DNA of 64,000 bases from a virus. The first letter of the stretch is position 1; every line of letters begins with the position of its first letter. The stretch lies in IMG/VR virus record IMGVR_UViG_3300028578_000003, positions 1-64,000 of that record. One strand, 5' to 3'. The position numbers and the translations under genes were made by a program. This document shows, piece after piece, positions 21,765-61,695 of the stretch. The notes below the pieces were generated by a model, which had not been told where the DNA came from, made no database searches, and worked only from the letters and a program-made list of their open reading frames with translations.

Positions 21765-23849
21765 TCAGACCAGTTCGAACTTGGGGATCTCAACCCCGGT
21801 GACGCCCTCCATCAGGCAGGCGACCAGGTCACGGGCAGAGCAGCGGGTGACGGCGTTGCCGAGCATCCGAACCTTGTCCCGCTTGGCTTTGCCGAGCAGC
21901 ACGTAGCCGCTGGAGAAGTCCATGCCGGCCTGGATCTCGGCGACGGCGAGCATCCGCAGTGTGCAGTCGTCGACGTCGACGGCGGTGCCGACCAGTGCGT
22001 CACCGTCCACAGTGGTCTGTGCCGGGATCGGCTCGTCCAGTGGCCGCATGATGCCTGTGTCGTAGGCGTAGAGCACGTGGTCCCAGCGGATCAGCGACTG
22101 CCCGCCTTCGGTGGTGAAGGTGCGCAGCGGCTCGTTGGGGCGGTAGCTCATTTGGCCCTGGTCACCGCGGGCGGTGTTGTTGCGCATCACCATCGCCGCG
22201 TCGGCCGGCAGGCCGATCAGCGACTGGTGCCCGGCGGTGGTCAGGGTCCGGATCGGCTCCCCGGCGGGCGTGCACATCTCCGCGCCGCCGTGGTTGTTGC
22301 GCATTACGAGGGCGTGGTGCTCGCCGCCGGCGGCGACCGTCTTGAACGGGTGGGTGGGTGGGGTGGCGACGCCGTTGTTGCGCAGTGGCACCACGAGGGC
22401 GTCCTGGTGGCGGGTGGTCTGCGCCCGCATCGGGTCGTTAGCGGGGCGGGCGAAGACACCGTCGCGGCCTTCCAGCGGCACGACCAGCGCGGTGTTCTCC
22501 CGGGTGGTGCAGGTCCGCATCGGCCCTTCGACCGTCGACGCGTCGTCGTTCCAGGTGCCGCCGGTCGGCACGAGCATCTCCGGGCCGACCGCGATGCTCT
22601 TGCTCAGCGTCGTGTGTTGGGTGCCCAGCGGCCGGTCGACCGGCCAGGACCTCACGCCGGGCCGCCGCTCGAAGGTGTGCCCTGAGGTCTCGACCACGAC
22701 CGGCTGGCAGTAGCGCTCCAGGCCGGCGGCGATGCGGGCGCGGGTCTTCGCGGCGAGTGGCCGCTTGCGGTCGCCGATCCGCTCGGCGGGCAGGGACCAG
22801 TCGATCGCGGAGGCGGCCGGCAGGACCAGCGGGTGGACCATCTGGCCGGCGCACGCCTTGGCGGGGCAGCGGTATGTGTACTGGGCCCGTGGGCCGTACC
22901 GCATCGGCCGCAACTTGCCCGGCTTGGGGTTGTAGATGCCGTCCACGACGTCGCCGCAGGAGGGGCAGGACGACTTGGGCCGCAGCCACTTGTTCCAGTC
23001 CGGGGTCTTGTAGATCGCCTTCCAGAAGATGATGTAGACGCGGTCCCGCAGTTGCGGCGCCGGCATACCGGTGGCCTGGGCGAACGCCGAATTCAGGGTA
23101 ATGATCTTCCAGCGGTAGCCCTCTGCCTCCATCTCGCGGAGCATGCGGGGCAGGGCGGCCCACTTGAGGATGTCGGGGACGTTCTCGACGATGATGCCCT
23201 TGTACTGGTGGTGACGGGCGAACCGGACCACGTCGGTCATCAGCATCCGGGACCGCCAGCGCGCTTCTCGCGCCTCGGGCGTCTCCGGGTCGCCTTCCAT
23301 CACGTCCAGCGCGAGCTGCTCGCTCTGCAGGTCGTAGTCGCAGGCCTCACCCCTGGCCACAGACCAGTACGTGCACTCCGGTGAGAACCAGGCGAAGTCC
23401 GTGCGCGGGTACCGCTTCGGGTCGGTGCGGGCGACGTTGGCGACGTCGTGGTCGGTGTCGGGGTGGTTGAAGTTGTGCGTCTCGATCGCGAGGGGCCAGT
23501 GATTCACGGCCATCCGCACGCCGGCGCCGGGCACTTCTCCGATCCCCGACGATGACCCGCCGGCGCCGGCGAAGAAGTCCGACCAGGTCGCCTCGACACC
23601 GTCCGGTGCCGAGCGGGTCGGCAGCACCCGCGGCAGCGAGCGGCGCAGCTCGGTGAGCGTGTCACCGCAGTCCCACACCTGGATCGGTTTGGTCGGGTGA
23701 TACGGCGTCGTCACCGTGAACAGGTGCGGCGCCTTCCGGGTCATCCCCTGGTGCAGCGCTTCCATGTCGACCGGTCCGGGCGGCGCCGTGTCGGTGGCGA
23801 GGGCTGCGTCGACGGCCTTGCCCATGGCGTTCATGTCGAGCACGGTCAC
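21765..23849 (-). CDS. C5-cytosine DNA methyltransferase
   Basis: DFFAGAGG (motif I), SPEC (IV), ENV (VI), QLRDR (VIII), LGNAV (X). Confidence 0.95.
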   Translation of the reverse strand: MTVLDMNAMGKAVDAALATDTAPPGPVDMEALHQGMTRKAPHLFTVTTPYHPTKPIQVWDCGDTLTELRRSLPRVLPTRSAPDGVEATWSDFFAGAGGSSSGIGEVPGAGVRMAVNHWPLAIETHNFNHPDTDHDVANVARTDPKRYPRTDFAWFSPECTYWSVARGEACDYDLQSEQLALDVMEGDPETPEAREARWRSRMLMTDVVRFARHHQYKGIIVENVPDILKWAALPRMLREMEAEGYRWKIITLNSAFAQATGMPAPQLRDRVYIIFWKAIYKTPDWNKWLRPKSSCPSCGDVVDGIYNPKPGKLRPMRYGPRAQYTYRCPAKACAGQMVHPLVLPAASAIDWSLPAERIGDRKRPLAAKTRARIAAGLERYCQPVVVETSGHTFERRPGVRSWPVDRPLGTQHTTLSKSIAVGPEMLVPTGGTWNDDASTVEGPMRTCTTRENTALVVPLEGRDGVFARPANDPMRAQTTRHQDALVVPLRNNGVATPPTHPFKTVAAGGEHHALVMRNNHGGAEMCTPAGEPIRTLTTAGHQSLIGLPADAAMVMRNNTARGDQGQMSYRPNEPLRTFTTEGGQSLIRWDHVLYAYDTGIMRPLDEPIPAQTTVDGDALVGTAVDVDDCTLRMLAVAEIQAGMDFSSGYVLLGKAKRDKVRMLGNAVTRCSARDLVACLMEGVTGVEIPKFELV

Positions 23850-24133
23850 GGGTTACCTCCGGGGATCTCGGCGGGCACGGCGACCCGACGCTTGAGCTTG
23901 CGGCGCTCACCTGCGGACAGACCGCCCCAGACGCCGAACCGCTCGTCGTGGCCGAGCGCGTATGCCAGGCATTCGGTCGTGACCTCGCAGCGGGCGCAGA
24001 TGCGTTTGGCCTCGCGGGGCGATCTGCCCTTCTCCGGGAAGAACGCCTCCGGGTCGGTTTGTTGGCACAGCGCCCGCTCTTGCCATTCGGGTGTGTCGCC
24101 GATCAGGTCGGCGACCTTTAGCGGACCGTCCAT
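23846..24133 (-). CDS. whiB: WhiB-family Fe-S transcription factor (WhiB2-like)
   Basis: WQERALC..TDPEAFFPEKG...AKRICARCEV..ECL.YAL..DERFGVWGGLS. Confidence 0.95.
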   Translation of the reverse strand: MDGPLKVADLIGDTPEWQERALCQQTDPEAFFPEKGRSPREAKRICARCEVTTECLAYALGHDERFGVWGGLSAGERRKLKRRVAVPAEIPGGNP

Positions 24134-24234
24134 GGTGCGCCCTCCATGCCGTCGTAGGTTTCCCCGACCGTGTGTAAATCCTATACACGCAGACGCGGAT
24201 TTATAAGGGGTTGGTGTCAGATACAGGGGATAGA

Positions 24235-24282
24235 ACCGGACAGGGCCGGGCCTGCCTTTCCGCAGGCCCGGCCCTGTCCGGG
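24235..24282 (-). terminator. Long hairpin, probable terminator upstream of whiB
   Basis: ccggacagggccgggcctgc...gcaggcccggccctgtccgg perfect inverted repeat just after the 24296 stop. Confidence 0.65.
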
Positions 24283-24295
24283 AGGGGTGTACGTA

Positions 24296-25198
24296 CTACC
24301 AGTGGTCGGGGTGGGCGGGGTGGTTGTAGTCGTTGTCCACCGCCGCGGCCGCCGCACCGTGCGCCGAGTACGGCACCCCGTCGTCGACGACCTTGCCCTC
24401 GATCACCATGCTGCCCGCCAGCCACAGCGCGACCCGCTCGGCGACCTCGATCTGCCGCTCCGACAGCTCGGGCCGGTGCGGGGCGGCGTCGCGGTACTCG
24501 ACCAGGGTGGCCAGCGCCGTCTCGATGTCGGCGGTGGTGAGCCCGACCACCCCGCTGGTACGGACCGCCCGGGTTCGGGCGGCGACGTCGTCGATCCGCT
24601 CGGCCAACACGGTCAGGGCGAGCTCGGCGGCCTCGTAGCCGGGGATCACCTCGTGCTCGCCGGGGATGAGCTCACGCTCGGTGATCCGACCCAGCGACAC
24701 GGGGATCTGGTCGACGACGACCTCGCCGGCGATGCCGCCGTCCGGGCCGCCCGCCGGGTCAGCGGTCGCCCACACCTTGAGCTGTGTGACGCCCCCGTCG
24801 AGCCGCCAGCCCGACTGCCCGTGCCAGTCGGCGTCGTGCAGCATGGACAGCACGCCCTCGACCAGCCAGCCGCCGGCGCCGTCGAGGCGTTGGTAGGCGG
24901 TCGCCAACGGCTCGACGTCCCGGATCTTCCCCTGCCCGGTGTCGCCGTCCAGCCAGGCCCGGAACGCGTCGACGTTGAAGGTGGCGGCCGGGTGACCCGG
25001 CTCGCCCGCGAATCCCACCACCATGCGCTGGCCGAGGGCGAGCAGCGCGGCGCGGCTGCCGTAGATGACTGCCTTGTCGTCCAGGCCAGCGGCGACCGCG
25101 TACTGGTCCTCGCCCAGCTCCTGCCCTTCGTCGCCGTCGAACTCGTAGCCGGGCGCGAACAAGCCCGCCTCGGTGGCCCTGCCCCACACGTGGGTCAT
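24296..25198 (-). CDS. Acidic hypothetical protein
   Basis: GGAGAG RBS before MTHVWG. Confidence 0.65.
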   Translation of the reverse strand: MTHVWGRATEAGLFAPGYEFDGDEGQELGEDQYAVAAGLDDKAVIYGSRAALLALGQRMVVGFAGEPGHPAATFNVDAFRAWLDGDTGQGKIRDVEPLATAYQRLDGAGGWLVEGVLSMLHDADWHGQSGWRLDGGVTQLKVWATADPAGGPDGGIAGEVVVDQIPVSLGRITERELIPGEHEVIPGYEAAELALTVLAERIDDVAARTRAVRTSGVVGLTTADIETALATLVEYRDAAPHRPELSERQIEVAERVALWLAGSMVIEGKVVDDGVPYSAHGAAAAAVDNDYNHPAHPDHW

Positions 25199-25243
25199 GG
25201 TGCTCTCCGTTCGTTCCGGTAAGTGGCCGGCTGAGTTGCCGGG

Positions 25244-25299
25244 ACCACTCAGCGATCCGCCCGCCTCACCGGGGGTGGGCGGGCGGATCACTGGGCGGC
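25244..25299 (-). repeat. Conserved intergenic stem-loop, copy 1 of 8
   Basis: Minus strand GCCCAGUG-stem-CGCUGAGUGG; related copies near 28579, 29571, 35821, 37224, 38101, 39071, 39685. Confidence 0.75.
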
Positions 25300-25304
25300 A
25301 CCGA

Positions 25305-25757
25305 TCAGGCGCCGCTGTCACCTGCGGCATGGCGCTGCCGGGCATGCCAGTCGATGATCGCGAGGCGGCGTTGGCCGGCGGCGACCGCCTCACGCCTGGT
25401 CTTGTGCCATGTCGCCCGCCTGCCCGGCAGGCCCATACGCCAGGTCCCGTGGAACGAGGGGGCGGTCTTGTCGACCTGGATCCTCGGGTCTTTCGGGTGC
25501 GCCAGCGTGGTGTTGGCCGGCGCGACCATCTCCGGCTGGCAGAGCACGGTCATGCCGCCCTTGCCGCGACCCACCACGTAGACCAGGCCGTTCGAGGTCG
25601 CGGCGTGCTCGTCCACGCCGCCGTACTCGACCGGCCTCTCCAGATCCCAGGACAGGACCAGGGCGCCGACCTCGATCCCGGATGAGGGCGTGTCCGGGTC
25701 CGCCGGCGTCATGGCCGCGTCAACGGCCACCCCCAGGGCCGCCATGTCGAGTTGCAT
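25305..25757 (-). CDS. Hypothetical protein with N-terminal LDMAALGVAVDAAM tag
   Basis: ORF track; GAGG RBS. Confidence 0.65.
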   Translation of the reverse strand: MQLDMAALGVAVDAAMTPADPDTPSSGIEVGALVLSWDLERPVEYGGVDEHAATSNGLVYVVGRGKGGMTVLCQPEMVAPANTTLAHPKDPRIQVDKTAPSFHGTWRMGLPGRRATWHKTRREAVAAGQRRLAIIDWHARQRHAAGDSGA

Positions 25758-46747: not shown

Positions 46748-47064
46748 ATACGAGGCAGTCGGATTCGCGGGTGCCGGGCCGGCCGCCGCCGGCGTCGTTC
46801 GGGCGGGAGGGCGTTGATGGGCCGCCGTCGGAGGATTTCTCGATCCGGGGCGGTCAGGCGTTCCACCTGGTGTTGCACGTCGATGTGACGCCGTCGGTGG
46901 AGTCGCTGGACGCGTTGCGTCAGGCGGTCGCGGCGACCACTCGTCAGGGTGTGCTGGAGGGGTTCGCGGCCGCGTACGAGGAGATGGAAGCGGAGGTCGC
47001 TGCCGCGTCTGGGCCGGGCCCGGACGCTGCCGCGCCGGGCGAGCCGGCGAGCGGGTCGACGTGA
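46744..47064 (+). CDS. Hypothetical protein
   Basis: Coupled on both sides. Confidence 0.55.
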   Translation: MNTRQSDSRVPGRPPPASFGREGVDGPPSEDFSIRGGQAFHLVLHVDVTPSVESLDALRQAVAATTRQGVLEGFAAAYEEMEAEVAAASGPGPDAAAPGEPASGST

Positions 47065-47699
47065 CCACGGTCATCGGCATCGCCCGGCCGCACGGTGTGT
47101 GGATGTCGGCGGACACCGGCACCAACGTCTTCGACCGGCCGGTCGTCGGGTCGACGTGGAAGATTCGGCGGTTGCTTGACGGCGGGGGCAGTCCGGTCGC
47201 GCTGCTGGGTATCTCCGGGACGGCGGCCGCGATCTCGGTGCTGCGCAAGGCGTTCGCCGACGAGCCGGTCGACCAGCTCGGCGACGGTGACCCGGAGGAT
47301 TGGTCGTACGCGATCGCCTCCCGGATGACGAAGGCGATGGTTGAGGCCGGGCTGACCGACCACGACACCGGGCAGATGGACGGCACGATGCTGCTCGGCA
47401 CGCCTGGGCACATGTGGACGCTCGAACATCACCTGGCTATACGGATGCCCGACGGGATCGGGGCGGTCGGGTCCGGTGAGGCCGTGGCCATCGGCGCGCT
47501 TGACGTGTTGCTGGAGGATGACGTGCCGCTCAGTCAGGCCGTCTACCGCGCGGCCACGATCGCGATCAACCGGGACCAGTGGTCAAGGCTGCCGCTGCAG
47601 AACGATTTCCTGCCTGCCGCCGACTCGGCTCTGCGCGCCGCTGGCCTGACCATCCCCACGCCGGCCGCCGGCGACACTGCGTCCGGGTCGGCTCGCTAG
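47061..47699 (+). CDS. Proteasome-beta/HslV-like Ntn threonine protease
   Basis: (M)TTVIG start; Thr1, Asp17 and Lys33 at canonical positions; AVGSG motif. Confidence 0.85.
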   Translation: MTTVIGIARPHGVWMSADTGTNVFDRPVVGSTWKIRRLLDGGGSPVALLGISGTAAAISVLRKAFADEPVDQLGDGDPEDWSYAIASRMTKAMVEAGLTDHDTGQMDGTMLLGTPGHMWTLEHHLAIRMPDGIGAVGSGEAVAIGALDVLLEDDVPLSQAVYRAATIAINRDQWSRLPLQNDFLPAADSALRAAGLTIPTPAAGDTASGSAR

Positions 47700-47850
47700 C
47701 CGCCCGTTGTTCCTGCCGCGTGTCGCGCGGCGCTGAGGTCCGCCGCCCGTAATGGGCCGCGGGCCTTTTCTGGTCTTCCGGCCGCCAGTCCCGCAATGGG
47801 CCGTGCCGCCGGGCTTTTTTCACACCGATCCCGAAATGGGAGTGATCACC

Positions 47851-48393
47851 ATGTCCGGACCAGCGGCGCAGGAGCGCAAGCATGGCCGTACGCCGAACTC
47901 GGTCACGGCCGGGGATTGGCGTGAGTACGACGACGTGCCGTTCGACGGTGCGCCGGAGATGCCGAAGTTGCCGGGGCGTAAGAAGTGGCACCCGCTGGTG
48001 GAGGCGTGGTGGATGACCACGTCGACGTTGCCGCACGCGGTCAGCTGGCGCGACGACGACTGGCAAAAGGTGTTCGAACTGTTGTTCGAAAAGCAGCGGT
48101 ACTACACCGCGGCGACGCCGAAGGAGCAGACCACCGCGCAGCTGACGGAGATCCGGCGGCGGGAGGACGCTCTCGGTATCGGGCAGCAGGCGCGGATCGC
48201 GCTGCGGATCCGGTACAAGCAGAAGGTGGAGCCCGGCGCGGCCGGCGACGGGCCCGGCGGCGCGGTCGAGGTGGTAGACGACGGTTCGGTGAAGCCGGCC
48301 GGGCAGGTGATCCCGATGGCGGACCGCCGCAAGACGATCCTGAGTCGCGCGCCCGGCGGCGAGGACACCGAGACCGCGACCGGCTCCGGCTGA
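47851..48393 (+). CDS. Terminase small subunit
   Basis: Directly upstream of terL; WHPLVEAWW...W.DDDW...EIRRRE..LG....RIALRI pattern of actinophage TerS. Confidence 0.8.
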   Translation: MSGPAAQERKHGRTPNSVTAGDWREYDDVPFDGAPEMPKLPGRKKWHPLVEAWWMTTSTLPHAVSWRDDDWQKVFELLFEKQRYYTAATPKEQTTAQLTEIRRREDALGIGQQARIALRIRYKQKVEPGAAGDGPGGAVEVVDDGSVKPAGQVIPMADRRKTILSRAPGGEDTETATGSG

Positions 48394-48413
48394 GCCCGGG
48401 CCGGTGAGCGGGG

Positions 48414-50182
48414 ATGCCTCGCAAGATGATCCTCGCCCCGCACCATGACCAGAACCTCAGTTTGGGATGGCTCGGCGTGTCCTGGATTGAGTTTTTTGTC
48501 CGGCACGGGCCCGGCGACGTCCAGGGCCAGCCGGTGCGGCACGGCGAGGAATACACAGAGTTTCTCGTCAACGCGTACGCGGTCGGTGAGCACGCCCGCA
48601 ACAACCACCTGCTGTACGACTCCGTGTTCTTGAGCCGCCCCAAGGGCCGGTGGGCCCCCACCGGGCAACTGGTGGGGGCCCACCGGCCTGACAAGGCTGC
48701 GACAAGAGCGGTCTCGCCGGCCGCATCTGCCTGTTCGAGGCGTTCGGCCCCTGCCGTTTCGCCGGATGGGCGCGCGGAGGCGAAACCTACCGTGACCCTT
48801 ACGGGTTCGGGTTTGAGTACACGTATGCCGAGGGTGAGCCGATGGGCCGGCCGGTCGTGGCCCCGTTCGTGCGGATCTGCGCGACCGAGGAGAACCAGAC
48901 GGGCAACACCTACCGGACCGTCTACTACAACCTGACGGACCGGGACTGCCCGCTGTATCACTGGCCCGGCCACGACGCCGGCAAGCGCGAGGTGTTCCTC
49001 GCCGACGGCGGCGAAATTCGCAGCAGCACAGCCAGTGCGGCCAGCAAAGATGGTGGCCTCGAAACGCATTCCACAATGGACGAAAGTCACCTCTATACGA
49101 CCGCTGAGTTGCGGGAGATGAAAGACGTCGTCGCCGCGAACATGTGGAAACGCAAGCGTGGCGCCGGCACCTGGTATTTGGAAACGACGACCATGTATGA
49201 GCCCGGCGAGGAGTCCGCCGCCGAGGCCACGTACAACGAGGCCGCCGCTCTCGCCGAAGGCCGTAAGCGGCGGGGCTCCCACCGCCTATATTTTGACCAC
49301 AGGTGGGGAGAGGTACCCGACCTGCACGACGAGCCGGTGCTGCGCCAAGGCCTACGGGACGCGTACGGCGACGCGATGGCCTGGATGGACGAGGACTCGC
49401 TCGTCGACCAGGTCTACGACACCCGGACCAGCGAGAACCGGGTGCGGCGATTCATGCTGAACGCGCAGACCAGCGCGAAAGACGCGTGGATCAAGTACGA
49501 GCAGTGGATCGCCTGCAAGGACTCCACGAAGGAGCTCCGGCCCGGCGACATGGTGTGCCTGGGCTTCGACGGCTCGGTGGGTGGCCCGGACGCGGACGCG
49601 ACCGCGCTGGTGGCGTGCCGGGTCTCGGACGGGCACATCGAGCTGATCGGCTGCTGGGAGAAGCCCGACGGGGTCGAGGGTGAGGACTGGCGGGTTCCGC
49701 GCGAGGAGGTCGCCGCCGCGGTCTACCAGGCCCGCGCCGACTACCGCGTGGTCGGCATGTACGCCGATCCGCCGCACTGGGACGACTACCTCGACGTGTG
49801 GCACCGGGAGTTTGGGCACGAGATGCTCGTGCAGGCCACCCAGAAGAGGCCCCTGGAGTGGTGGACGGCCAGGCCGACGCAGATGGTGTCGGCGTTGCTG
49901 CGGTTCCACACCGCGGTGCTCGAACGGCGGGTCACCTACACGCCGGCGGAGGACCGGGTCGGGCGTAAGGCGGAGCTCACGCTGACGCTGCAACGCCACG
50001 CCCTTAATGCCAGGGAAGATCGACGCCGGTCGGGGTTGCACATCCGGAAGGAATATCCGAAATCACCCAGGAAGATCGATGGGGTGATGGCTGCCGTGCT
50101 CAGCTACGAGTGCCGGCAGGACGCGATCGCCGCCGGCGTCGACGCGGCGAGCGACTGGTTCATGCCGAAGCGGATCCGATGA
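48414..50182 (+). CDS. terL: Terminase large subunit interrupted by a 50-nt insert (48648-48697); 572 aa if skipped
   Basis: Joining GGC 48645-47 to TGC 48698 restores Walker A SRPKGCDKSG; Walker B TMDESH; nuclease LGFDGS...KIDG. Confidence 0.92.
48645..48697 (+). other. Candidate translational-bypass element (20-bp hairpin, GCAA loop, matched GGC codons)
   Basis: GGCCGGTGGGCCCCCACCGG-GCAA-CTGGTGGGGGCCCACCGGCC-TGACAA-GGC. Confidence 0.7.
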
Positions 50183-50326
50183 GAGCTGCCGGCCCGGGAC
50201 GGAGTGTGGGACCTTCCGGGCCGGCTACACCATCCACCAGGGGCGCCTGCCGCGCGGCGGGCGAAAGAACGTCCCCGTACCCCGCGTGGGGTCGGGGGGG
50301 AATCCACGAGGGGGGAGGTGAAGAGG

Positions 50327-50599
50327 ATGGACACCAAGACGAAGGTCGAAGCGGTCGAGGCCGGCGACGCGGTGAAGGTGGTCGACGAGCACTACGTCGA
50401 GCACGTCGCGTTGGTTACCACGGTCCACGGCGAGTTCAGCGAGGCGTTCACGCCGTGCATCAACGTCGTGTACGTGTCGAAGGACCCCGCTAAGCGAGAC
50501 CCGAACGGTCGGCAGATCGAGCGGATGTCATCGCTGCAGCACTACTCGCAAGGTCCGGACAAGATGCCCCACCCGGGCCGCTACTGGATCAACCTGTGA
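50327..50599 (+). CDS. Hypothetical protein
   Basis: GGAGG RBS. Confidence 0.65.
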   Translation: MDTKTKVEAVEAGDAVKVVDEHYVEHVALVTTVHGEFSEAFTPCINVVYVSKDPAKRDPNGRQIERMSSLQHYSQGPDKMPHPGRYWINL

Positions 50600-50704
50600 T
50601 CCATGCCGGAGCGCTACTACCTACCGATGAGGCGGGGAACGCGCCGAGGCGCCCGGCGTGGGGAATCACGAGCAGGGCCGGCCATCGCGGGTAGCCTGCT
50701 GATC

Positions 50705-51010
50705 ATGGGTAAGCGGTGGGAAGGCGTCGGTGTCACACCACGCGACTTGACGGCCGGCGCGGTCGTCATGGTGCCGGCCGGTCAGGTCAGCGCGGCGGCG
50801 AACGGCGGGCCCTGCATCATCGCGTGGGCCGTCGTGGTAGGACCCGACGATTACGACGACGCCGTCGGGCCTAAGGCCAAGTGGTGGCTCGACGTCTACA
50901 CAGGCGGCCCGGGAGCGCCGCCTCTGCCGCAGGCGTACCGGGCCGAGGAGATCCTGGGTGTGCCGGCGCTCGGCCTGAGCCATGAGGGCGCGCCACCCCG
51001 ACCGGCCTGA
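50705..51010 (+). CDS. Hypothetical protein
   Basis: Short protein-like ORF; start uncertain. Confidence 0.45.
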   Translation: MGKRWEGVGVTPRDLTAGAVVMVPAGQVSAAANGGPCIIAWAVVVGPDDYDDAVGPKAKWWLDVYTGGPGAPPLPQAYRAEEILGVPALGLSHEGAPPRPA

Positions 51011-51017
51011 CCGTATT

Positions 51018-52091
51018 TCAATACAGCATGTCGCGGGGTACCTCGGTCTTGTCCGCCAGGTCGTCGACCGCCTCCCGGACGGCGGCGACGTACTCGCGCA
51101 GGTGTTCGTCCACGATCTCGCGGGAGGCCCTGGCGAAGGGGTCGGGCGGACGGGTCTGAAGCTGGACCGTCTGGACGAGGTCGGCCGGGTCCGCGGGGAA
51201 GCACCCCTCGAACATCACGTCCCCCGACTCGACGTCGACGAGCCGCCACGCACTGGCGGGCAGGTCGTGGTCGAGGACGATCGGGACGTCGCCGACCCTG
51301 TCCCGCGCGGACCGTCCGGACCTCACGGCGTGGATTGCCTCGAGCGCTCTGTGCCCGACACGCAGTTCCCGCCTCGGCGGCGGCCGGCCCTCAACCCAGA
51401 CGCCGAGCCGGTCGCGGCGGAACGCGTTGGTGGGCTCGGTATTGATCTCCCTGGTGACGTCGTCGACTGACAGCCACGGCGCCGAACCGTACGCGTCCGC
51501 TGGCCGGTCGGGGTCGTGCTCGTACAGCTGCTCCATGTACGCCTGCGAGACCTTGCCGTCCTTCGGCCAGCCCGGGGGACGCGGCGGCGGCGTGAACAAC
51601 GGTTCCGGTGTGCCGGGCGGAGCGAGCCACACTTCCCCGATGACGTTGCCGTCGTCGATGTAGCCGACGTTGTCCCACGTGCCTACCAGCTGCTGCCAGT
51701 ACCGCTGCCGCAGGTACTCGGTGTCCTGCTTCTGCTCCAGCTCCGGCTCGTTGGAGGAGGGCAGAAGCGGAAAGTCGGCCTCGAACACGGCCGAGTCGGT
51801 CTGCTTCACCCACCGGCCCCGCGCCGGTTCTGTCTTCTCCGCCCGCATGGCGGCGTGCCACAGCTGGTAGATGTCTGACGCGCTCGGTGTGACTGACAGG
51901 TTCGCCGGCCGCGGCGGCGGTGGTTCGGCGGCGAGCTCGGCGAACCGGTCACGGACGCGCCGGACGTCGATGTGGGCCTGTGCCGGTTCGCCGTCGTGGA
52001 CGTCGACGAGTTCGGCGAACCGCTCGCGGTCGATCGGGCTCATGCCCATGCGCACGCGGTCGTACCGCGCTCTGGAGATCGGCAACCTCAT
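51018..52091 (-). CDS. Hypothetical protein, antisense insertion between terL and portal
   Basis: Long ORF filling the gap; start uncertain (52049-52091). Confidence 0.6.
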   Translation of the reverse strand: MRLPISRARYDRVRMGMSPIDRERFAELVDVHDGEPAQAHIDVRRVRDRFAELAAEPPPPRPANLSVTPSASDIYQLWHAAMRAEKTEPARGRWVKQTDSAVFEADFPLLPSSNEPELEQKQDTEYLRQRYWQQLVGTWDNVGYIDDGNVIGEVWLAPPGTPEPLFTPPPRPPGWPKDGKVSQAYMEQLYEHDPDRPADAYGSAPWLSVDDVTREINTEPTNAFRRDRLGVWVEGRPPPRRELRVGHRALEAIHAVRSGRSARDRVGDVPIVLDHDLPASAWRLVDVESGDVMFEGCFPADPADLVQTVQLQTRPPDPFARASREIVDEHLREYVAAVREAVDDLADKTEVPRDMLY

Positions 52092-52124
52092 TCTCGCAGG
52101 CTAGCCACCGAGGGGAGGGACCGG

Positions 52125-53645
52125 GTGATTCCCGACAGTGACAGGCCGCTCACCCCAGGCTGGTACTTCAAGACCCTGTTCAACCAGCTGTGCGACCGGG
52201 CCCGCCGCGAGCGCCTCGAGCTGCTGAACAACTACCGGGTAGGGAAGGCGCCGCTGCCGCAGGGTGCTGAGCGGGCCCGGGAGGCGTACGAGGCGTTCAT
52301 GAGGATGGCGCGGACGAACTACGCCGAGTTGGTGGTGTCCGCTCTGGCCGAGCGGATGCGGATCACGGGATTCACGTCGGCGACCGACTCCGACGCGACC
52401 GGCGACCCGGACCTGGCCAGCTTGTGGGAGCGGGCCGGGCTGAACGTCATCTCCTCCGACGTGCACATGGGGATGCTGTCGCTGTCCGAGTCGTACGTGA
52501 TCGTCGGCGCGGTCGACGAGGACACCGACGCGGCGGTGGTCACGTACGAGGACCCACGGTTCATGATCGGGATGCCGGATCCGGACAAGCCACGCAGGCT
52601 GGTCGCCGCCCTGAAAATCAAGTACGACTTGGCCGACGACATGGACCGCGCCTACCTGTTCCTGGCGGGCAAGACCTTCGCCCCGGGCGCGAACGCGCAG
52701 ATCTGGGTGGCCGAGCGCAAGGCGATGGGCCGCATGGGGCCGCTGGGCGGCTTCTACGACAAGGAGTGGGACTGGGTGCCGGCCCGCTCCGGCGCGCTCG
52801 CCCACGACCGGATCCCCGTGGTGCAGTTCGCCAACAAGGACAACCTGGGCGAGTACGAGCCGCACGTCGACGTCCTAGACCGAATCAATCACCAGATACT
52901 TCAGCGGATGACGGTGGCGGTCATGCAGGCCTTCCGCCAACGCGCTGTCAAGAATCTGCCATCGGTCTATCCGCAGGGCCACCCGAAAGCCGGCCAGGAG
53001 ATCGACTACGGGAACATCTTCGTCTCCGACCCGGCCGCGGTGTGGCACCTGCCGCCCAACGCGGAGATGTGGGAATCCACCGTGGTGGACCTGCGGCCGC
53101 TGCTCGAAGCGGTCCGCGAGGACGTTATCGGGCTCGGTGCGGTCACTAAGACGCCGCTCTACTACCTGATGCAGGGCGGGGAGAACCAGTCCGCCGAAGG
53201 CGCGGTCGCGCAGCGGGAGAACCTGACCTTCAAGGCCAAGGACCGCATCGAGCGGTGCAAGTCCCTGTGGGTCGACGTCGTCATCCTCATGCTCCTGCAG
53301 GCCGGCGCCACCGACCGCCGCGCGCTGGCACGGATCGCGTCGATCTGGGCGGCGCCGGAACTGCTGTCGCTCGCCGAGCGGGCCGACGCCGCGTCCAAGG
53401 CGCAGAACGACATCCCGCGCCGGTCCCGGCTGCGGGAGATCTGGGGCTTCGACCCGGCCACCGTCGACCGGATGATGACCGAGTGGGCTGACGAGCTGCT
53501 GCTCGCCCAGCAGGTCGCCGTCGCGATGGCCAGCGCCGCCCCGATCGGGGCGGCGCCCGCCCAGCCGGCGCTGCCCGGCGCACCCAACCAAGGCCAGCCG
53601 GCATTGCCGGCCGGGCCCGCGCCCGCCCAGCCGGCGGCCGCGTGA
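52125..53645 (+). CDS. Portal protein (SPP1 gp6-like)
   Basis: MARTNYAELVV...ERM; PVVQFAN...GEYEPH.D..DRINH; ENQSAEG; GGAGG RBS. Confidence 0.92.
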   Translation: MIPDSDRPLTPGWYFKTLFNQLCDRARRERLELLNNYRVGKAPLPQGAERAREAYEAFMRMARTNYAELVVSALAERMRITGFTSATDSDATGDPDLASLWERAGLNVISSDVHMGMLSLSESYVIVGAVDEDTDAAVVTYEDPRFMIGMPDPDKPRRLVAALKIKYDLADDMDRAYLFLAGKTFAPGANAQIWVAERKAMGRMGPLGGFYDKEWDWVPARSGALAHDRIPVVQFANKDNLGEYEPHVDVLDRINHQILQRMTVAVMQAFRQRAVKNLPSVYPQGHPKAGQEIDYGNIFVSDPAAVWHLPPNAEMWESTVVDLRPLLEAVREDVIGLGAVTKTPLYYLMQGGENQSAEGAVAQRENLTFKAKDRIERCKSLWVDVVILMLLQAGATDRRALARIASIWAAPELLSLAERADAASKAQNDIPRRSRLREIWGFDPATVDRMMTEWADELLLAQQVAVAMASAAPIGAAPAQPALPGAPNQGQPALPAGPAPAQPAAA

Positions 53646-55445: not shown

Positions 55446-56597
55446 GTGCCGGTGACCACGCCCGTACAGGCCCCTCCCCCGCAGCAGATGACGGCGGCGC
55501 AGCTGGCCGCGCTGCTCGCGCTCGTGCAGGCGCAGGCGGCGACCCGCCAGCAACTCACCCAGGCGGCGATCGCCGCGGCGCTGGCGCCGCTGACCGCGTT
55601 CACCGCGTGGTGGGACAGCGCGGCGGTGGACCGGCTCATCGACCAGATCCTGCGGGTCGTGCAGCCGATCCAACGGCAGGCCGCGACGCTCACCGACGCC
55701 TACGTCACCCGGGCCTCGACGATCATTTCCGGCCGGACGCAGCGCCCGGCCGGCGTCGTCGACATCACCCGGCTGCGGCGGGCGATGACCGAGCAGGTCG
55801 CCGACGAGATCCTGGCCGGGGTGCGCCGTTCGGTGCGGGTGGAGCTCGGCCAGCTCGCCGAGCAGCCCAGCAGCCGAGTGGAGCCGACCCCCGGGTGGGG
55901 GCTCGAGCACGACCGGGACGCGCAGGACCCCGCCGACGCGTACGGGCGGATCGCGGACGGGTTCCGGTACGCGACCACGGTGCTCGGCGACTCACCGGAC
56001 CAGGCCCAGGCGAAGGCGCGGGTGCGGATCGCGAACGTCGCCGAGACCGACGTGACGTTGGCGGTCAGGGAGCAGTACCGCAAGAACCTCGGCGCGCAGG
56101 GCGCGACGGCGTGGCGGCGGATCCTGCATCCGGAGCTATCGCGGACGGGCCCGTGCGGGCTGTGTGTGGTGGCGGCGGACCGCATCTACTCCACCGAGGA
56201 CCTGCTCCCACTCCACAACAGGTGTGTCTGTGAGGTTTTGCCCGTCTATGGGCGGGTCGACCCGGGGATCCACCTCAACGGCGACGACCTGGCCGCGTTG
56301 TACGCCGCGGCGGGCGGGAACACCCGCGAGAAACTGCGCCGGATCTCGGTGGTGATGACCGAGCACGGCGAGCTCGGCCCGATCCTGGTCGACGGCGCCC
56401 AGCACTACCGGTCGCCGGAGGATGTCGCCCGCACGTACGCGTCCTCCCGGCGGGTGCGCGAGCAGGCCATCCTCGACGCGTTGCTGCCCCGCTACGAGGC
56501 CACCCGGTACCGGGTGGAGCGCGGCGACCCGCTGGAAAAAACGCTGCGTTGGCAGACCGACCGTATTGAAGAGTTGCGGCGGTCACTGTCAAGCTGA
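55446..56597 (+). CDS. MuF-like minor head/capsid maturation protein
   Basis: WRRILHPELSRTGPCGLC..AADRIY....PLHNRCVCEVLP; located after portal. Confidence 0.85.
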   Translation: MPVTTPVQAPPPQQMTAAQLAALLALVQAQAATRQQLTQAAIAAALAPLTAFTAWWDSAAVDRLIDQILRVVQPIQRQAATLTDAYVTRASTIISGRTQRPAGVVDITRLRRAMTEQVADEILAGVRRSVRVELGQLAEQPSSRVEPTPGWGLEHDRDAQDPADAYGRIADGFRYATTVLGDSPDQAQAKARVRIANVAETDVTLAVREQYRKNLGAQGATAWRRILHPELSRTGPCGLCVVAADRIYSTEDLLPLHNRCVCEVLPVYGRVDPGIHLNGDDLAALYAAAGGNTREKLRRISVVMTEHGELGPILVDGAQHYRSPEDVARTYASSRRVREQAILDALLPRYEATRYRVERGDPLEKTLRWQTDRIEELRRSLSS

Positions 56598-60651: not shown

Positions 60652-61695
60652 ATGTACATCGATGACTACATCAGCCCCGCGGAGCTGACCTGGTACGCGC
60701 GGGAGCTGCCGACGCCGCAGCAGAACATCCTCGAGCGGTTCCTGCCGGACGTGCAGATCAACCACCTCGAGGCGGAGATCGGCGAGGTTCAGAAGACGAA
60801 CCGCGCGGCACACTTCCGCACATGGGACACGCCGGTGCAAATCGGAAAGCGCGACACATTTGAGACACGTCGCGTCAAGATCCCCCCCCTCGGGCAGACC
60901 CTTCCCGTAGGGGAGTACGAGCACCTGCAGCTCGCGCTCGCGCGCACGGGCGGCAACGACCGCGCCGCCATGATCGAGGAGATTTACAAGGATACGGACA
61001 ACAATGTCCGTTCTATCCACAATCGGATCGAGATCGCGCGCGGCGACGTCCTCATGGACGGCAAATTCACACTCGTCAATGAGGACGGTCTGACGCTGGA
61101 GGCCGACTTCGGCCTGCCCGTCGGCAACAGCGTCACCCCGTCCGGCCAGCTGTGGAGCCACGCCGACGCCAAGCCGCTCACCGACATGCGCGCGTGGATG
61201 CTCGCGTACGCCCAGCTGAACGGCAGCCGCCCCGGCTACGCGGTGATGGGCGAGGGGATCATCTCGGCGCTGGAGGCCAACGCGGAGGTCCGCCAGGCCG
61301 CCTCGTACGGCGGGAACATCCTGCTCCCGTTCGTCACCGACGCCGAACTCGCGGCGATCTGGTCGAAGAACCGGTTCCCCCCGATCGTGCCCTACGACAC
61401 GGTGATCGACTACAACGGCAGCAACAAGCGGGTGCTGGACGAGAACAAGATCCTGTTCCTGCCGGCCAACCCCCGTGACCTGGGCTTCACCGCCTGGGGC
61501 ATCACGGCTGAGGCGTTGGCCCTGATGGGCTCCAACAACCCGCAGATCACCTTCCAGCAGGCGCCCGGGATCGTGGCCGTGACCACGCGCCTGGGCAACC
61601 CGCCCCGCGTGTGGACCCAGGCCGGCGCGACGGCGATGCCGATGATCACCGACATTCGCAAGCTCATGGTGGCCGAGGTCCTGGCGGACGCCTGA
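60652..61695 (+). CDS. Major capsid protein (lambda gpE-like family)
   Basis: NILERFLP, RAAHFRTWD, IPPLG, RIEIARGDVLMDGK, DFG, W; position; GAGGAG RBS. Confidence 0.92.
   Translation: MYIDDYISPAELTWYARELPTPQQNILERFLPDVQINHLEAEIGEVQKTNRAAHFRTWDTPVQIGKRDTFETRRVKIPPLGQTLPVGEYEHLQLALARTGGNDRAAMIEEIYKDTDNNVRSIHNRIEIARGDVLMDGKFTLVNEDGLTLEADFGLPVGNSVTPSGQLWSHADAKPLTDMRAWMLAYAQLNGSRPGYAVMGEGIISALEANAEVRQAASYGGNILLPFVTDAELAAIWSKNRFPPIVPYDTVIDYNGSNKRVLDENKILFLPANPRDLGFTAWGITAEALALMGSNNPQITFQQAPGIVAVTTRLGNPPRVWTQAGATAMPMITDIRKLMVAEVLADA

Follow-up and report, generated by a model that had tools for sequence, protein, structure and literature searches.

Whether translational hopping is a curiosity or a general ability of the bacterial ribosome is an old question. 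To our knowledge, efficient long-range hopping is known experimentally from essentially T4 gene 60, the bacterial case, and from yeast mitochondria.

The closest described system is the 50-nt bypass of T4 gene 60 and of its T4-like homologues (Huang 1988; Weiss 1990; Bonocora 2011; Manning and Atkins, bioRxiv 10.1101/2022.08.31.505936; review PMC5009743). The locus described here, a gene for the large terminase subunit (terL) in a soil actinobacterial phage-like element, shares with gene 60 a gap of about 50 nt in an essential phage gene, matched Gly take-off and landing codons, a 5' stem-loop that includes the take-off codon and is followed by an unstructured 3' part before the landing codon, as well as the location of the element at a conserved site and its insertion-like appearance. 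The two differ in the gene concerned (terL instead of a topoisomerase subunit), in the host (Actinomycetota), in the lack of any sequence similarity, and in the take-off codon, which is not followed by a stop here. The hairpin of gene 60 is short and capped by a tetraloop, whereas the terL stems have 18-22 bp and are GC-rich, and no homing-endonuclease gene was found beside terL.

A second class are the UUA-mediated candidate bypasses in the terL genes of Streptomyces phage phiHau3, prophage StrepC.1 and an S. catenulae prophage (Smith 2013; Antonov et al. 2023, PMC10732093). For one of the phiHau3 gaps a junction peptide is reported from mass spectrometry, using a UAA-substituted construct in E. 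coli; a survey of 100 ter genes reported no long hairpin gaps (both PMC10732093). Re-reading the terL gene of phiHau3, a viable phage, we find gaps of 10 nt whose take-off and landing codons are synonymous (GGC to GGT and TCT to TCC), located 2 codons downstream of site 1 (Walker A) and 2-3 codons upstream of site 2 (Walker B). The present locus belongs to the same TerL family and is alike in its two sites, its synonymous codons and, once the hairpin is folded, a similar single-stranded distance. The phiHau3-type gaps, however, comprise 7-10 nt, start with UUA, a rare codon, and contain no internal hairpin, whereas the gap here has 50 nt and a 20-bp hairpin, and an ordinary codon, CGG, is next to take-off.

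A third class are the byp elements in the mitochondria of Magnusiomyces capitatus (Lang 2014; Nosek 2015), considered here as summarized in a review (PMC5009743). According to this summary, they are short (27-55 nt), GC-rich, hairpin-capable inserts in protein-coding genes, which are skipped between mostly matched, in some cases imperfect, codons, vary in presence between relatives and are apparently mobile; 81 sites are distributed genome-wide, each followed by an unused codon. The terL gaps, in contrast, occur in one copy per genome and at two sites of one gene, and involve bacterial ribosomes and no unassigned codon.

The divided terL gene and its head gene module

The window (the whole stretch of DNA analysed, 64,000 nt) is part of a 163-kb record whose only terL gene is split inside the ATP-binding loop (Walker A). 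In translation, the ORF from 48414 reads ...LYDSVFLSRPKG up to a GGC codon at 48645-47 and is out of frame thereafter. Following a second GGC at 48695-97 the translation reads CDKSGLAGRICLFEAFGPCRF, in frame with the ORF ending at 50182. The relevant features are as follows.

47752..48393, + strand: terS, small terminase subunit (Pfam PF25673 Terminase_7, E = 1.6e-12), adjoining terL upstream
48414..48647, + strand: terL segment 1, 78 codons from ATG to the take-off codon (...SRPKG), from translation and PHROG 9
48645..48647, + strand: take-off codon GGC (Gly), at the 5' base of the stem
48646..48689, + strand: RNA hairpin, 20-bp stem (19 Watson-Crick pairs and one G.U), GCAA loop at 48666-48669
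48648..48697, + strand: coding gap, 50 nt including the landing codon, length mod 3 = 2
48689..48691, + strand: TGA in the landing frame
48695..48697, + strand: landing codon GGC, 6 nt beyond the 3' base of the stem
48698..50182, + strand: terL segment 2, 494 codons from the resume codon TGC (CDKSGLAG...) to the stop, from translation and PHROG 9
51972..53645, + strand: portal gene (PHROG 104, E = 2e-88)
55446..56597, + strand: head maturation protease gene (PHROG 1522, E = 3e-51)
60652..61695, + strand: major head protein gene (PHROG 29, E = 3e-63)

By these matches, the head gene module with terS, portal, protease and major head protein is intact. Terminase_7 is also called upstream of terL in seven relatives (L007, L009, L010 and L091-L094).

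Deletion of 48648-48697 (50 nt) in silico yields a protein of 572 aa, the predicted bypass junction being ...LSRPKGCDKSGL. At the position of the gap, homologues carry an uninterrupted SRPKGC(D/A)KS or SRPRGWGKS (alignment with the Streptomyces phages Samy and SF1 and the Gordonia phage DatBoi). The gap thus separates residues that are adjacent in homologues and both lie within the Walker A loop, which becomes contiguous (SRPKG|CDKSG) only if the 50 nt are skipped. Translation and alignment agree with the original prediction of two GGC codons spaced 50 nt apart in split frames, and of a skip that restores a 572-aa TerL with a normal P-loop. The TGA at 48689-91 lies in the landing frame, two codons 5' of the landing GGC, and closes this frame as had been claimed; a frameshift further upstream can therefore not enter segment 2.

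Both segments match PHROG 9 (terminase large subunit), with E = 2.7e-4 for segment 1 and E = 1.4e-36 for segment 2. Segment 1 corresponds to profile positions 1-79 of the TerL alignment and aligns with the homologues, and segment 2 contains the remainder of Walker A, Walker B (TMDES) and the nuclease domain, with 55.6% identity to the TerL of Samy. The family profile matches HK97 TerL (PDB 6Z6D, E = 9.8e-11): the family consensus SRPKG-x-DKSG is aligned to SIARKNGKTG, the Walker A segment of HK97 TerL, and TMDES corresponds to the family Walker B consensus (avlDET), aligned to HK97 ILDET, a stretch that is not significant by itself. Pfam has no matching family for either piece of terL, nor for one uninterrupted relative, and a phmmer search of one relative against PDB gave no match; PHROGs and the PDB profile comparison were used in place of Pfam. 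Judged from these profile matches, the split gene can be assigned to the HK97-like large terminase subunits over both of its segments.

The hairpin and its counterparts in related terL genes

Positions 48646-48665 pair with 48670-48689 to form 20 bp with one G.U pair and the loop GCAA (48666-69), as originally described, the stem beginning at the second base of the take-off codon. For the 83-nt context the folding energy is -62.3 kcal/mol (z = -7.4), a stability that none of 200 shuffles attains, and its antisense strand is weaker (-57.2 kcal/mol), in line with the proposal of an RNA structure on the sense strand. Each arm can indeed fold alone into a 7-bp hairpin, yet the pair of these is far less stable than the long stem (-25.3 vs -51.2 kcal/mol). 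The codon after take-off is CGG and the gap is devoid of TTA, in agreement with the claim that neither a stop nor UUA follows the take-off codon. Rfam gave no match over 48200-49100.

The hairpin of the window is present in a single copy in the 163-kb record, other than expected for a byp-, MITE- or REP-like repeat dispersed in many copies per genome, and no exact or near-exact copy was found in IMG/VR. An inverted-repeat scan of the window did not place it among the 25 longest pairs. The same scan shows another perfect 20-bp hairpin at 24236-24281, between convergent ORFs and terminator-like.

Logan contigs of two sequencing runs on the source soil sample (depth 31.5 in one, 11.7 in the other) cover positions 48350-49050 with zero differences. 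Both runs may be the source of the window DNA, so that they confirm the assembly and do not constitute an independent sample. The insert is hence not missing from the source runs; a form without the 50 nt was not seen in their contigs, where rare variants cannot be revealed. Two further runs (X3 and X4) contain only short parts, from relatives.

Including the window, 22 related terL genes carry GC-rich hairpin gaps of 44-56 nt at Walker A or Walker B, with 16 of the 22 at the Walker A site:

Walker A, after the Gly codon: window, L006, L007, L009, L010, L127, L188
Walker A, after the preceding Lys codon: L008, L079, L091, L117, L118, L121, L122, L123, L126
Walker B (6 genes): L092, L093, L094, L169, L173, L181

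The carriers derive from one cultured Micromonospora genome, from IMG/VR records (IMG-numbered and probably isolate genomes) and from at least 10 metagenome data sets. The Micromonospora carrier is a prophage of M. maritima JCM 17013 (L079, contig NZ_BAABCL010000003.1), with a Lys-type gap of 47 nt. The hairpin sequences differ among the 22 genes while their geometry is constant: stems of 18-22 bp, GC-rich, begin at -4 to +3 relative to the take-off codon, and landing codons usually follow 4-7 nt past the stem (geometry from a gap-free stem walk; RNAfold structures for L117, L123 and L181). Either the length of a gap is not a multiple of three (1 or 2 mod 3), or it is and an in-frame stop is present; consequently no gap can be read through. 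In L006, L007, L009 and L093 a stop stands immediately 5' of the landing codon. The peptides that an insert would encode are unconserved and in different frames. The 30 residues upstream of take-off are highly conserved, equally so in gap-less relatives. The close relatives L119 and L120 are uninterrupted at the gap site.

In 17 of 21 full-length cases the landing codon either equals the take-off codon or shares its tRNA (Gly, Lys or Phe), a count that ignores kinship and leaves out L118, which starts within its own insert. The matched pairs are GGC/GGC, GGT/GGC, GGC/GGT, GGT/GGT, AAG/AAG, TTT/TTT, TTC/TTC, TTT/TTC and AAA/AAA, the last a co-change of both codons in L122. Four relatives show no clean match (L008 with AAA/AAT, L188 with GGA/CGA, L094 and L181). 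Among the relatives, GGC, GGT, AAG, AAA, TTT or TTC stands at the equivalent of the take-off codon, and the next codon is GTG, GCG, GCC, TGG or GTC.

In the alignment of the Lys-type gaps, compensatory changes are seen at 11 of the 18 stem pairs, and pairing is kept in 97% of cells. The covariation score of 0.485 was reached by 0 of 500 shuffles, and slid controls scored 0.14 or less. Deviations from Watson-Crick pairing in the stems are G.U in 21 cases and A.C in 1, and in 17 of 21 cases the sense strand folds more stably than the antisense strand (p = 0.0036), both without regard to kinship. The excess of G.U over A.C indicates selection on the sense RNA. The comparison of related terL genes that had been suggested as a check therefore yields what was looked for, namely hairpin inserts at the same codon with matched codons and covarying stems, and the many diverged carriers, together with the single copy in the 163-kb record, are at odds with a repeat confined to one defective prophage.

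Both coding flanks are under purifying selection. Among close relatives, dN/dS is 0.09-0.30 in both flanks (up to ~0.44 in the most distant pairs), and it amounts to 0.15 and 0.21 between L122 and L123, which both contain the insert. The N-terminal value of L079 was discarded (dN > 2, probably a misalignment). Downstream of the gap, the ORF is open for ~490 codons or more in 10 insert-bearing genes; in L188 it is truncated and the gene looks dead. As the carriers are uncultured phages or prophages, their viability is deduced from sequence. The phage collection contains no isolated plaque-forming phage of the insert-bearing clade; the phage nearest to that clade is Samy, which is uninterrupted.

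On the TerL tree the insert is patchy, with at least 15 gains or losses in one clade of 52 and with sister pairs that have and lack it. The 15-bp stem of L127 at Walker A recurs almost unchanged in L092 at Walker B (arms 15/15 and 14/15 nt), which may suggest mobility. A scan for the C6/G6 core that several relatives have in common returned 22 IMG/VR contigs; apart from the two known ones, they contain ordinary and mostly intergenic terminator-like hairpins, and the scan therefore does not support a dispersed family. For the ORFs at 50204-52091 and the neighbours of terL in L007, L008 and L093 no match to a transposase or nuclease family was obtained, and no homing endonuclease was found adjoining terL. 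Shorter interruptions exist in the same family: L050 and L186 contain a single extra T that results in TTT-TGA-C at Walker B, a classic +1 shift context, and L168 and L191, from the clade of the window, have gaps of 10-11 nt led by UUA or AUA.

Probable bypassing and its rival explanations

We consider programmed translational bypassing of the 50-nt gap, with need for neither a stop nor a rare codon, the probable explanation, based on the comparative data above; the originally proposed hairpin-driven hop between matched Gly codons is supported by them as a candidate. An unreadable gap between adjacent residues, matched codons and a conserved take-off stem-loop are typical of bypassing; a stop or slow codon in the A site at take-off is lacking. 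In the proposed course, the ribosome would read 78 codons up to GGC 48645-47, where the peptidyl-tRNA-Gly(GCC) would release the take-off codon. The 20-bp hairpin, with the take-off codon in its 5' base, would re-form and bring the landing GGC beside the P site, the tRNA would re-pair there, and decoding would restart at TGC 48698, so that a TerL of 572 aa with an unbroken Walker A (SRPKGCDKS) results. Once the stem has folded, the single-stranded stretch left to cross would be about as long as the 10-nt gaps in phiHau3 terL. Because neither a stop nor a rare codon follows take-off, the trigger would be the hairpin itself, perhaps together with the conserved nascent peptide. Several points speak against bypassing: no stop, UUA or other slow codon comes after take-off, in contrast to gene 60, the byp elements and phiHau3; four relatives have no clean codon match; a 20-bp GC stem is far larger than the take-off stem-loop of gene 60 and cannot fit the A site; and the 3-nt direct repeat could also be the target-site duplication of an insertion. 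That hopping takes place, how efficiently and for what purpose, we infer from the sequences.

The last point belongs to a rival explanation, in which a selfish or accidental palindromic insertion (minimal, MITE-like or terminator-like, with a 3-nt target duplication) inactivated terL, so that the carriers are defective and the matched codons a mere duplication. The patchy TerL tree with its at least 15 gains or losses, the near-identical stems of L127 and L092 at different sites, similar GC hairpins that are intergenic and terminator-like in other viral contigs, and the decayed appearance of L188 would all fit. We nevertheless regard it as unlikely: dN/dS is 0.1-0.3 in both flanks even among genes that share the insert, 10 carriers retain the long downstream ORF (~490 codons or more), and the interrupted gene is the sole terL of an otherwise intact head module. 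Covarying stems and the 21:1 excess of G.U over A.C point to a sense RNA instead of a DNA palindrome, the repeats are always in codon frame and drift only to synonymous codons of the same tRNA, and the hairpin, single-copy in 163 kb, was not found elsewhere in IMG/VR. Comparably improbable is a removal of the 50 nt prior to translation, either by cutting of the mRNA at the hairpin and religation (protein-dependent) or by precise DNA deletion between the GGC repeats in some genomes. A structure-specific nuclease would find an obvious handle in the hairpin, and palindromes between short repeats can be deleted in replication; close insert-less relatives exist, and rare variants are invisible in contigs. 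Excision of RNA would, however, need no matched codons and is for this reason less likely than a hop, given that 17 of 21 gaps are codon-matched with a third base drifting only within the codons of the same tRNA. The asymmetric boundaries, the 5' one at the stem base and the 3' one 4-7 nt beyond the stem, likewise fit a hop better than a cut. No Rfam, intron or ribozyme match was obtained, 50 nt are too short for a self-splicing intron, and the joined form is absent from the contigs of the two runs.

It is very doubtful that the insert is decoded in another way, either by a late frameshift that adds ~16 residues to the P-loop or as two separate polypeptides that assemble. Frameshifting does seem to be in use within this gene family, as judged from TTT-TGA-C at Walker B in L050 and L186; here, however, the landing frame is shut by TGA, and in L006, L007, L009 and L093 by the stop directly 5' of landing, the peptides to be inserted are neither conserved nor in a common frame, and two chains would divide the Walker A loop, with segment 2 preceded by no start codon. 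An assembly or sequencing artefact such as a fold-back chimera can be practically dismissed: palindromes may arise in libraries and the window stems from one soil metagenome sample, but the identical sequence was obtained from two separately assembled runs (depths 31.5 and 11.7), and like inserts are found in more than 20 independent assemblies including isolate genomes.

Returning to bypassing, we tentatively propose, as a broader view that is conceivable but short of probable, that the gaps may form a new class, coding gaps with an RNA hairpin in the terL genes of actinobacterial phages. They would be the phage counterpart of the mitochondrial byp elements, moving between codons of Walker A and Walker B and skipped by a hairpin-assisted hop without a stop or hungry codon, with the folded stem leaving ~5 nt between take-off and landing codon; the 10-nt gaps of phiHau3 and the +1 sites with TTT-TGA-C would be short members of the same recoding series. 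The series may be kept for the protection of homing-element targets or for setting the dose of TerL. Possible purposes of the hop itself are the tolerance of a selfish insert, control of TerL dosage and protection of the target site of a homing element.

More than 20 diverged gaps in an essential gene are a natural series that brings its own genetic controls, namely variants of the matched codons, stems that covary, all three frame classes among the gaps, relatives whose site is empty, and versions of 10 nt and of +1 at the same codons. The rules of take-off, of hairpin use and of landing thereby become directly testable in Actinomycetota. If true, a hop could be triggered without a stop or rare codon. 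We also note that gene callers split or drop terL genes that bear such gaps, and their carriers then count as defective or as having no terminase.

The split terL gene and its hairpin

The record of the window is a 163-kb IMG/VR virus sequence whose source is a soil metagenome; the window covers its first 64 kb. The gene for the terminase large subunit (terL) lies in two pieces on either side of a hairpin:

47752-48393: terS (Pfam Terminase_7), upstream of the terL ORF
48414: ORF start of the first terL piece, 78 residues that end ...LYDSVFLSRPKG and then run out of frame
48645-48647: GGC, the take-off codon
48646-48665 paired with 48670-48689: stem of 20 bp with one G.U pair and a GCAA loop
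48689-48691: TGA closing the frame of the second terL piece, which reads Q-G-CDKSGLAGRICLFEAFGP... and extends to 50182
48695-48697: GGC, the landing codon

Each piece has a match to PHROG 9 (terminase large subunit), and the long one shares 55.6% identity with TerL of the Streptomyces phage Samy. Excising the gap, that is, everything from after the take-off codon through the landing codon (48648-48697, exactly 50 nt), fuses GGC 48645-48647 to TGC 48698 and yields a 572-aa protein. At this junction an unbroken SRPKGC(D/A)KS or SRPRGWGKS is found in the aligned proteins of Samy, Gordonia phage DatBoi and phage SF1; the family profile matches HK97 TerL (PDB 6Z6D) and places the junction residues on the Walker A loop. 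The hairpin folds far more stably than shuffled sequence (z = -7.4), and its sense fold is stabler than the antisense fold. The original prediction had described the frames, the 50 nt, the GGC pair, the stem, the GCAA loop, the TGA and the 572-aa product correctly in every checkable detail.

Contigs from two runs of the source sample, assembled separately (depth 31.5 and 11.7), contain the insert unchanged, with 0 differences over 48350-49050. The hairpin is a single copy in the 163-kb record and a search of IMG/VR found no copy of it, which speaks against a host REP/MITE repeat. The insert is therefore neither an artefact nor a dispersed repeat. Among the families tested, no terL other than the split gene occurs in the record, and the portal, protease and major head protein genes in the window are intact.

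Hairpin gaps in related terL genes

Relatives were sought by searching a protein collection with the out-of-frame 173-aa ORF, using a length filter that leaves out whole TerL proteins. This yielded short ORFs whose break falls at SRPK(G) in some genes and close to Walker B in others. The survey comprised the contigs of these ORFs, 80 loci from species-representative genomes and 80 metagenome loci. A hairpin gap at Walker A is present in 16 distinct genes (7 Gly-type and 9 Lys-type), and six further loci have one at Walker B.

Loci with hairpin gaps (L-numbers, terL loci of relatives; hyphens mark the break)
Walker A, after the Gly codon (Gly-type): window, L006, L007, L009, L010, L127, L188
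Walker A, after the preceding Lys codon (Lys-type): L008, L079, L091, L117, L118, L121, L122, L123, L126
Walker B, at KETF-VxFDE or VVF-DE (n = 6): L092, L093, L094, L169, L173, L181

L079 belongs to a prophage in a cultured strain, Micromonospora maritima JCM 17013. The two IMG/VR records IMGVR_UViG_2518285558_000002 and ..559_000005 (L005/L006; IMG-numbered and probably isolate genomes; TerL 65% identical) carry a 47-nt insert at the codon used in the window, with an unlike hairpin sequence, GGT as take-off and GGC as landing codon, and a TAG immediately before the latter. The nearest neighbour of the window is L118, whose contig opens inside a Lys-type insert. The gap (L118:1-60) is identical to that of L091, and the Walker A that follows reads GCDRS, with Arg replacing the P-loop Lys; perhaps this copy is inactive, or else a variant.

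The anatomy is shared by the 21 gaps that lie fully on contigs (L118 left out). They are 44-56 nt long, with GC-rich stems of typically 15-25 bp. Counted from the first base of the take-off codon, the stem starts anywhere from 4 nt upstream to 3 nt downstream, and its 3' base is usually followed by the landing codon at a distance of 4-7 nt. Two of the gaps have a length of 0 mod 3, each with an in-frame stop, and the others are 1 or 2 mod 3, so that read-through is precluded in every case. In 17 of the 21, the take-off codon either recurs unchanged as the landing codon or shares its tRNA with it (Gly GGC/GGT, Lys AAG, Phe TTT/TTC). In L122 both codons have changed together to AAA, and in the Gly and Phe pairs the third base drifts between C and T only. 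The four gaps lacking a match are those of L188 (GGA/CGA), L008 (AAA/AAT), and L094 and L181 (no clean match); the downstream ORF of L188 is cut short after 150 codons, and this gene looks dead.

Substitution patterns indicate that the hairpin is under selection as sense-strand RNA. Eight alignable Lys-type gaps, mostly of 47 nt, are homologous; compensatory changes occur at 11 of the 18 stem pairs in their alignment, where 97% of cells are base-paired (n = 8 gaps), and 0 of 500 shuffles equalled the observed covariation score, with slid controls far lower. Stems that can be walked without gaps contain 344 Watson-Crick pairs, 21 G.U and 1 A.C, and in 17 of 21 gaps the sense fold is the stabler one (p = 0.0036); these counts ignore shared ancestry, with the same pattern in all three types (Gly, Lys and Phe). 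Equal numbers of G.U and A.C would be expected from a DNA palindrome or an antisense RNA, and the excess of G.U argues against both. The genes themselves also appear to be alive. Between close insert-bearing genes dN/dS is 0.09-0.30 on both flanks of the gap, at dS 0.5-1.0, and reaches about 0.44 in the pairs that are furthest apart. L122 and L123 share the same insert, hence diverged while it was present, and give 0.15 and 0.21 for the two flanks. In 10 carriers the downstream frame is open for at least about 490 codons, to a homologous stop. Related terL genes thus have hairpin inserts at the codon of the window, covarying stems and matched codons, as expected from the original prediction.

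In a tree of 154 TerL C-terminal regions, all interrupted genes fall into one well-supported clade of 52, of which about 21 are interrupted, compared to none of the remaining 102. Within the clade at least 15 gains or losses are required, and several sister pairs differ in insert presence.

Proposed programmed bypassing and its alternatives

We moderately favour programmed translational bypassing as the best reading of the 50-nt gap: peptidyl-tRNA-Gly would depart from GGC 48645-48647, the hairpin would re-form after take-off, and the tRNA would re-pair with GGC 48695-48697. A putative hairpin-driven hop between matched Gly codons, as first proposed, gains strong comparative support, with the relatives deciding the case. 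It is improbable that the hairpin is a selfish insertion and the genes are dead: the patchy distribution in the clade and a near-identical 15-bp stem at Walker A of L127 and Walker B of L092 would suit such an origin, but the dN/dS values and the sense-RNA signature contradict it. Removal of the 50 nt from RNA or DNA ahead of translation seems likewise doubtful, as it has no need for matched codons or asymmetric boundaries. A frameshift or a two-piece protein is very unlikely; the frame offset differs between gaps, which disfavours a simple frameshift. An artefact has next to no probability.

Bypassing has been suspected before in this family. In Smith et al. (2013) and Antonov et al. (2023, PMC10732093), translation of terL in the viable Streptomyces phage phiHau3 is proposed to hop over two 10-nt gaps led by UUA; for one of these, mass spectrometry detected a peptide across the junction when a UAA-substituted construct was expressed in E. 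coli (PMC10732093). Re-reading the phiHau3 genome, we find two such runs: GGC, 10 nt ending in GGT, then AAG, in the Walker A region and two codons further downstream than the gap of the window; and TCT, 10 nt ending in TCC, then ACG, 2-3 codons upstream of the Walker B gap site. A folded hairpin leaves about 5 nt plus the landing codon single-stranded, near the phiHau3 gap distance. In contrast to T4 gene 60, byp elements and phiHau3, the long gaps combine an ordinary sense codon after take-off with a very long stem. Long hairpin gaps were not reported in the 2023 survey of 100 ter genes (PMC10732093), and our literature search found no description of them. The comparison supports the view that the terL gaps represent a new hairpin-driven, stop-independent variant of bypassing, in a family already suspected of short bypass gaps. 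Short gaps, long gaps and +1 sites thus occur within one gene family, at two common hot spots and with synonymous take-off and landing codons.

Gaps of the phiHau3 type also occur inside the hairpin-gap clade: L168:1600-1612 and L191:1600-1613 have 10- and 11-nt gaps between the Phe codon and the GAC of VVF-DE, led by the rare codons TTA and ATA, respectively, and both ending in CTC. L050:1870-1895 (Plantactinospora alkalitolerans S1510) and L186:1575-1590, which are unrelated terL genes, each gain a TTT-TGA-C at Walker B from one surplus T; programmed +1 frameshifting in prfB takes place in this very context. Here ...VF is followed by a stop and then by DES... in the +1 frame, at the site of the hairpin and 10-nt gaps of relatives.

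A possible mini-intein, other hairpins and neighbouring genes

No homing nuclease was found adjoining terL of the window. In L006:1225-1650, and equally in L005, an in-frame insert of about 140 residues follows immediately after the Walker B MDE, alongside the 47-nt Walker A gap. It ends ...THN, followed by T, and looks like a mini-intein, although a Pfam search of the insert gave no intein match; an intein-like insert at this position suggests that these codons attract homing elements. A hairpin core of six C, GCCG, loop, (C/T)GGT and six G is common in unrelated viral contigs of IMG/VR (L095-L116), mostly in intergenic positions typical of terminators. The terL inserts could have been recruited from such terminator-like hairpins.

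The window itself contains a further perfect 20-bp GC hairpin with a 6-nt loop (24236-24281), which splits no gene. It lies between the convergent ORF ends of 23697-24206 (+) and 24296-25393 (-) and is probably a bidirectional terminator. The 1.8 kb between terL and portal (50204-52091) hold three ORFs of 131 aa (+), 135 aa (+) and 357 aa (-), for which Pfam and PHROG searches gave no match. In relatives other genes occupy this slot, such as an NlpC/P60 gene in L092 and L094, and the slot is therefore a variable region. Just upstream of terS, the ORF at 47061-47699 weakly matches an HslV-family peptidase (PHROG 1040, E = 9e-9).
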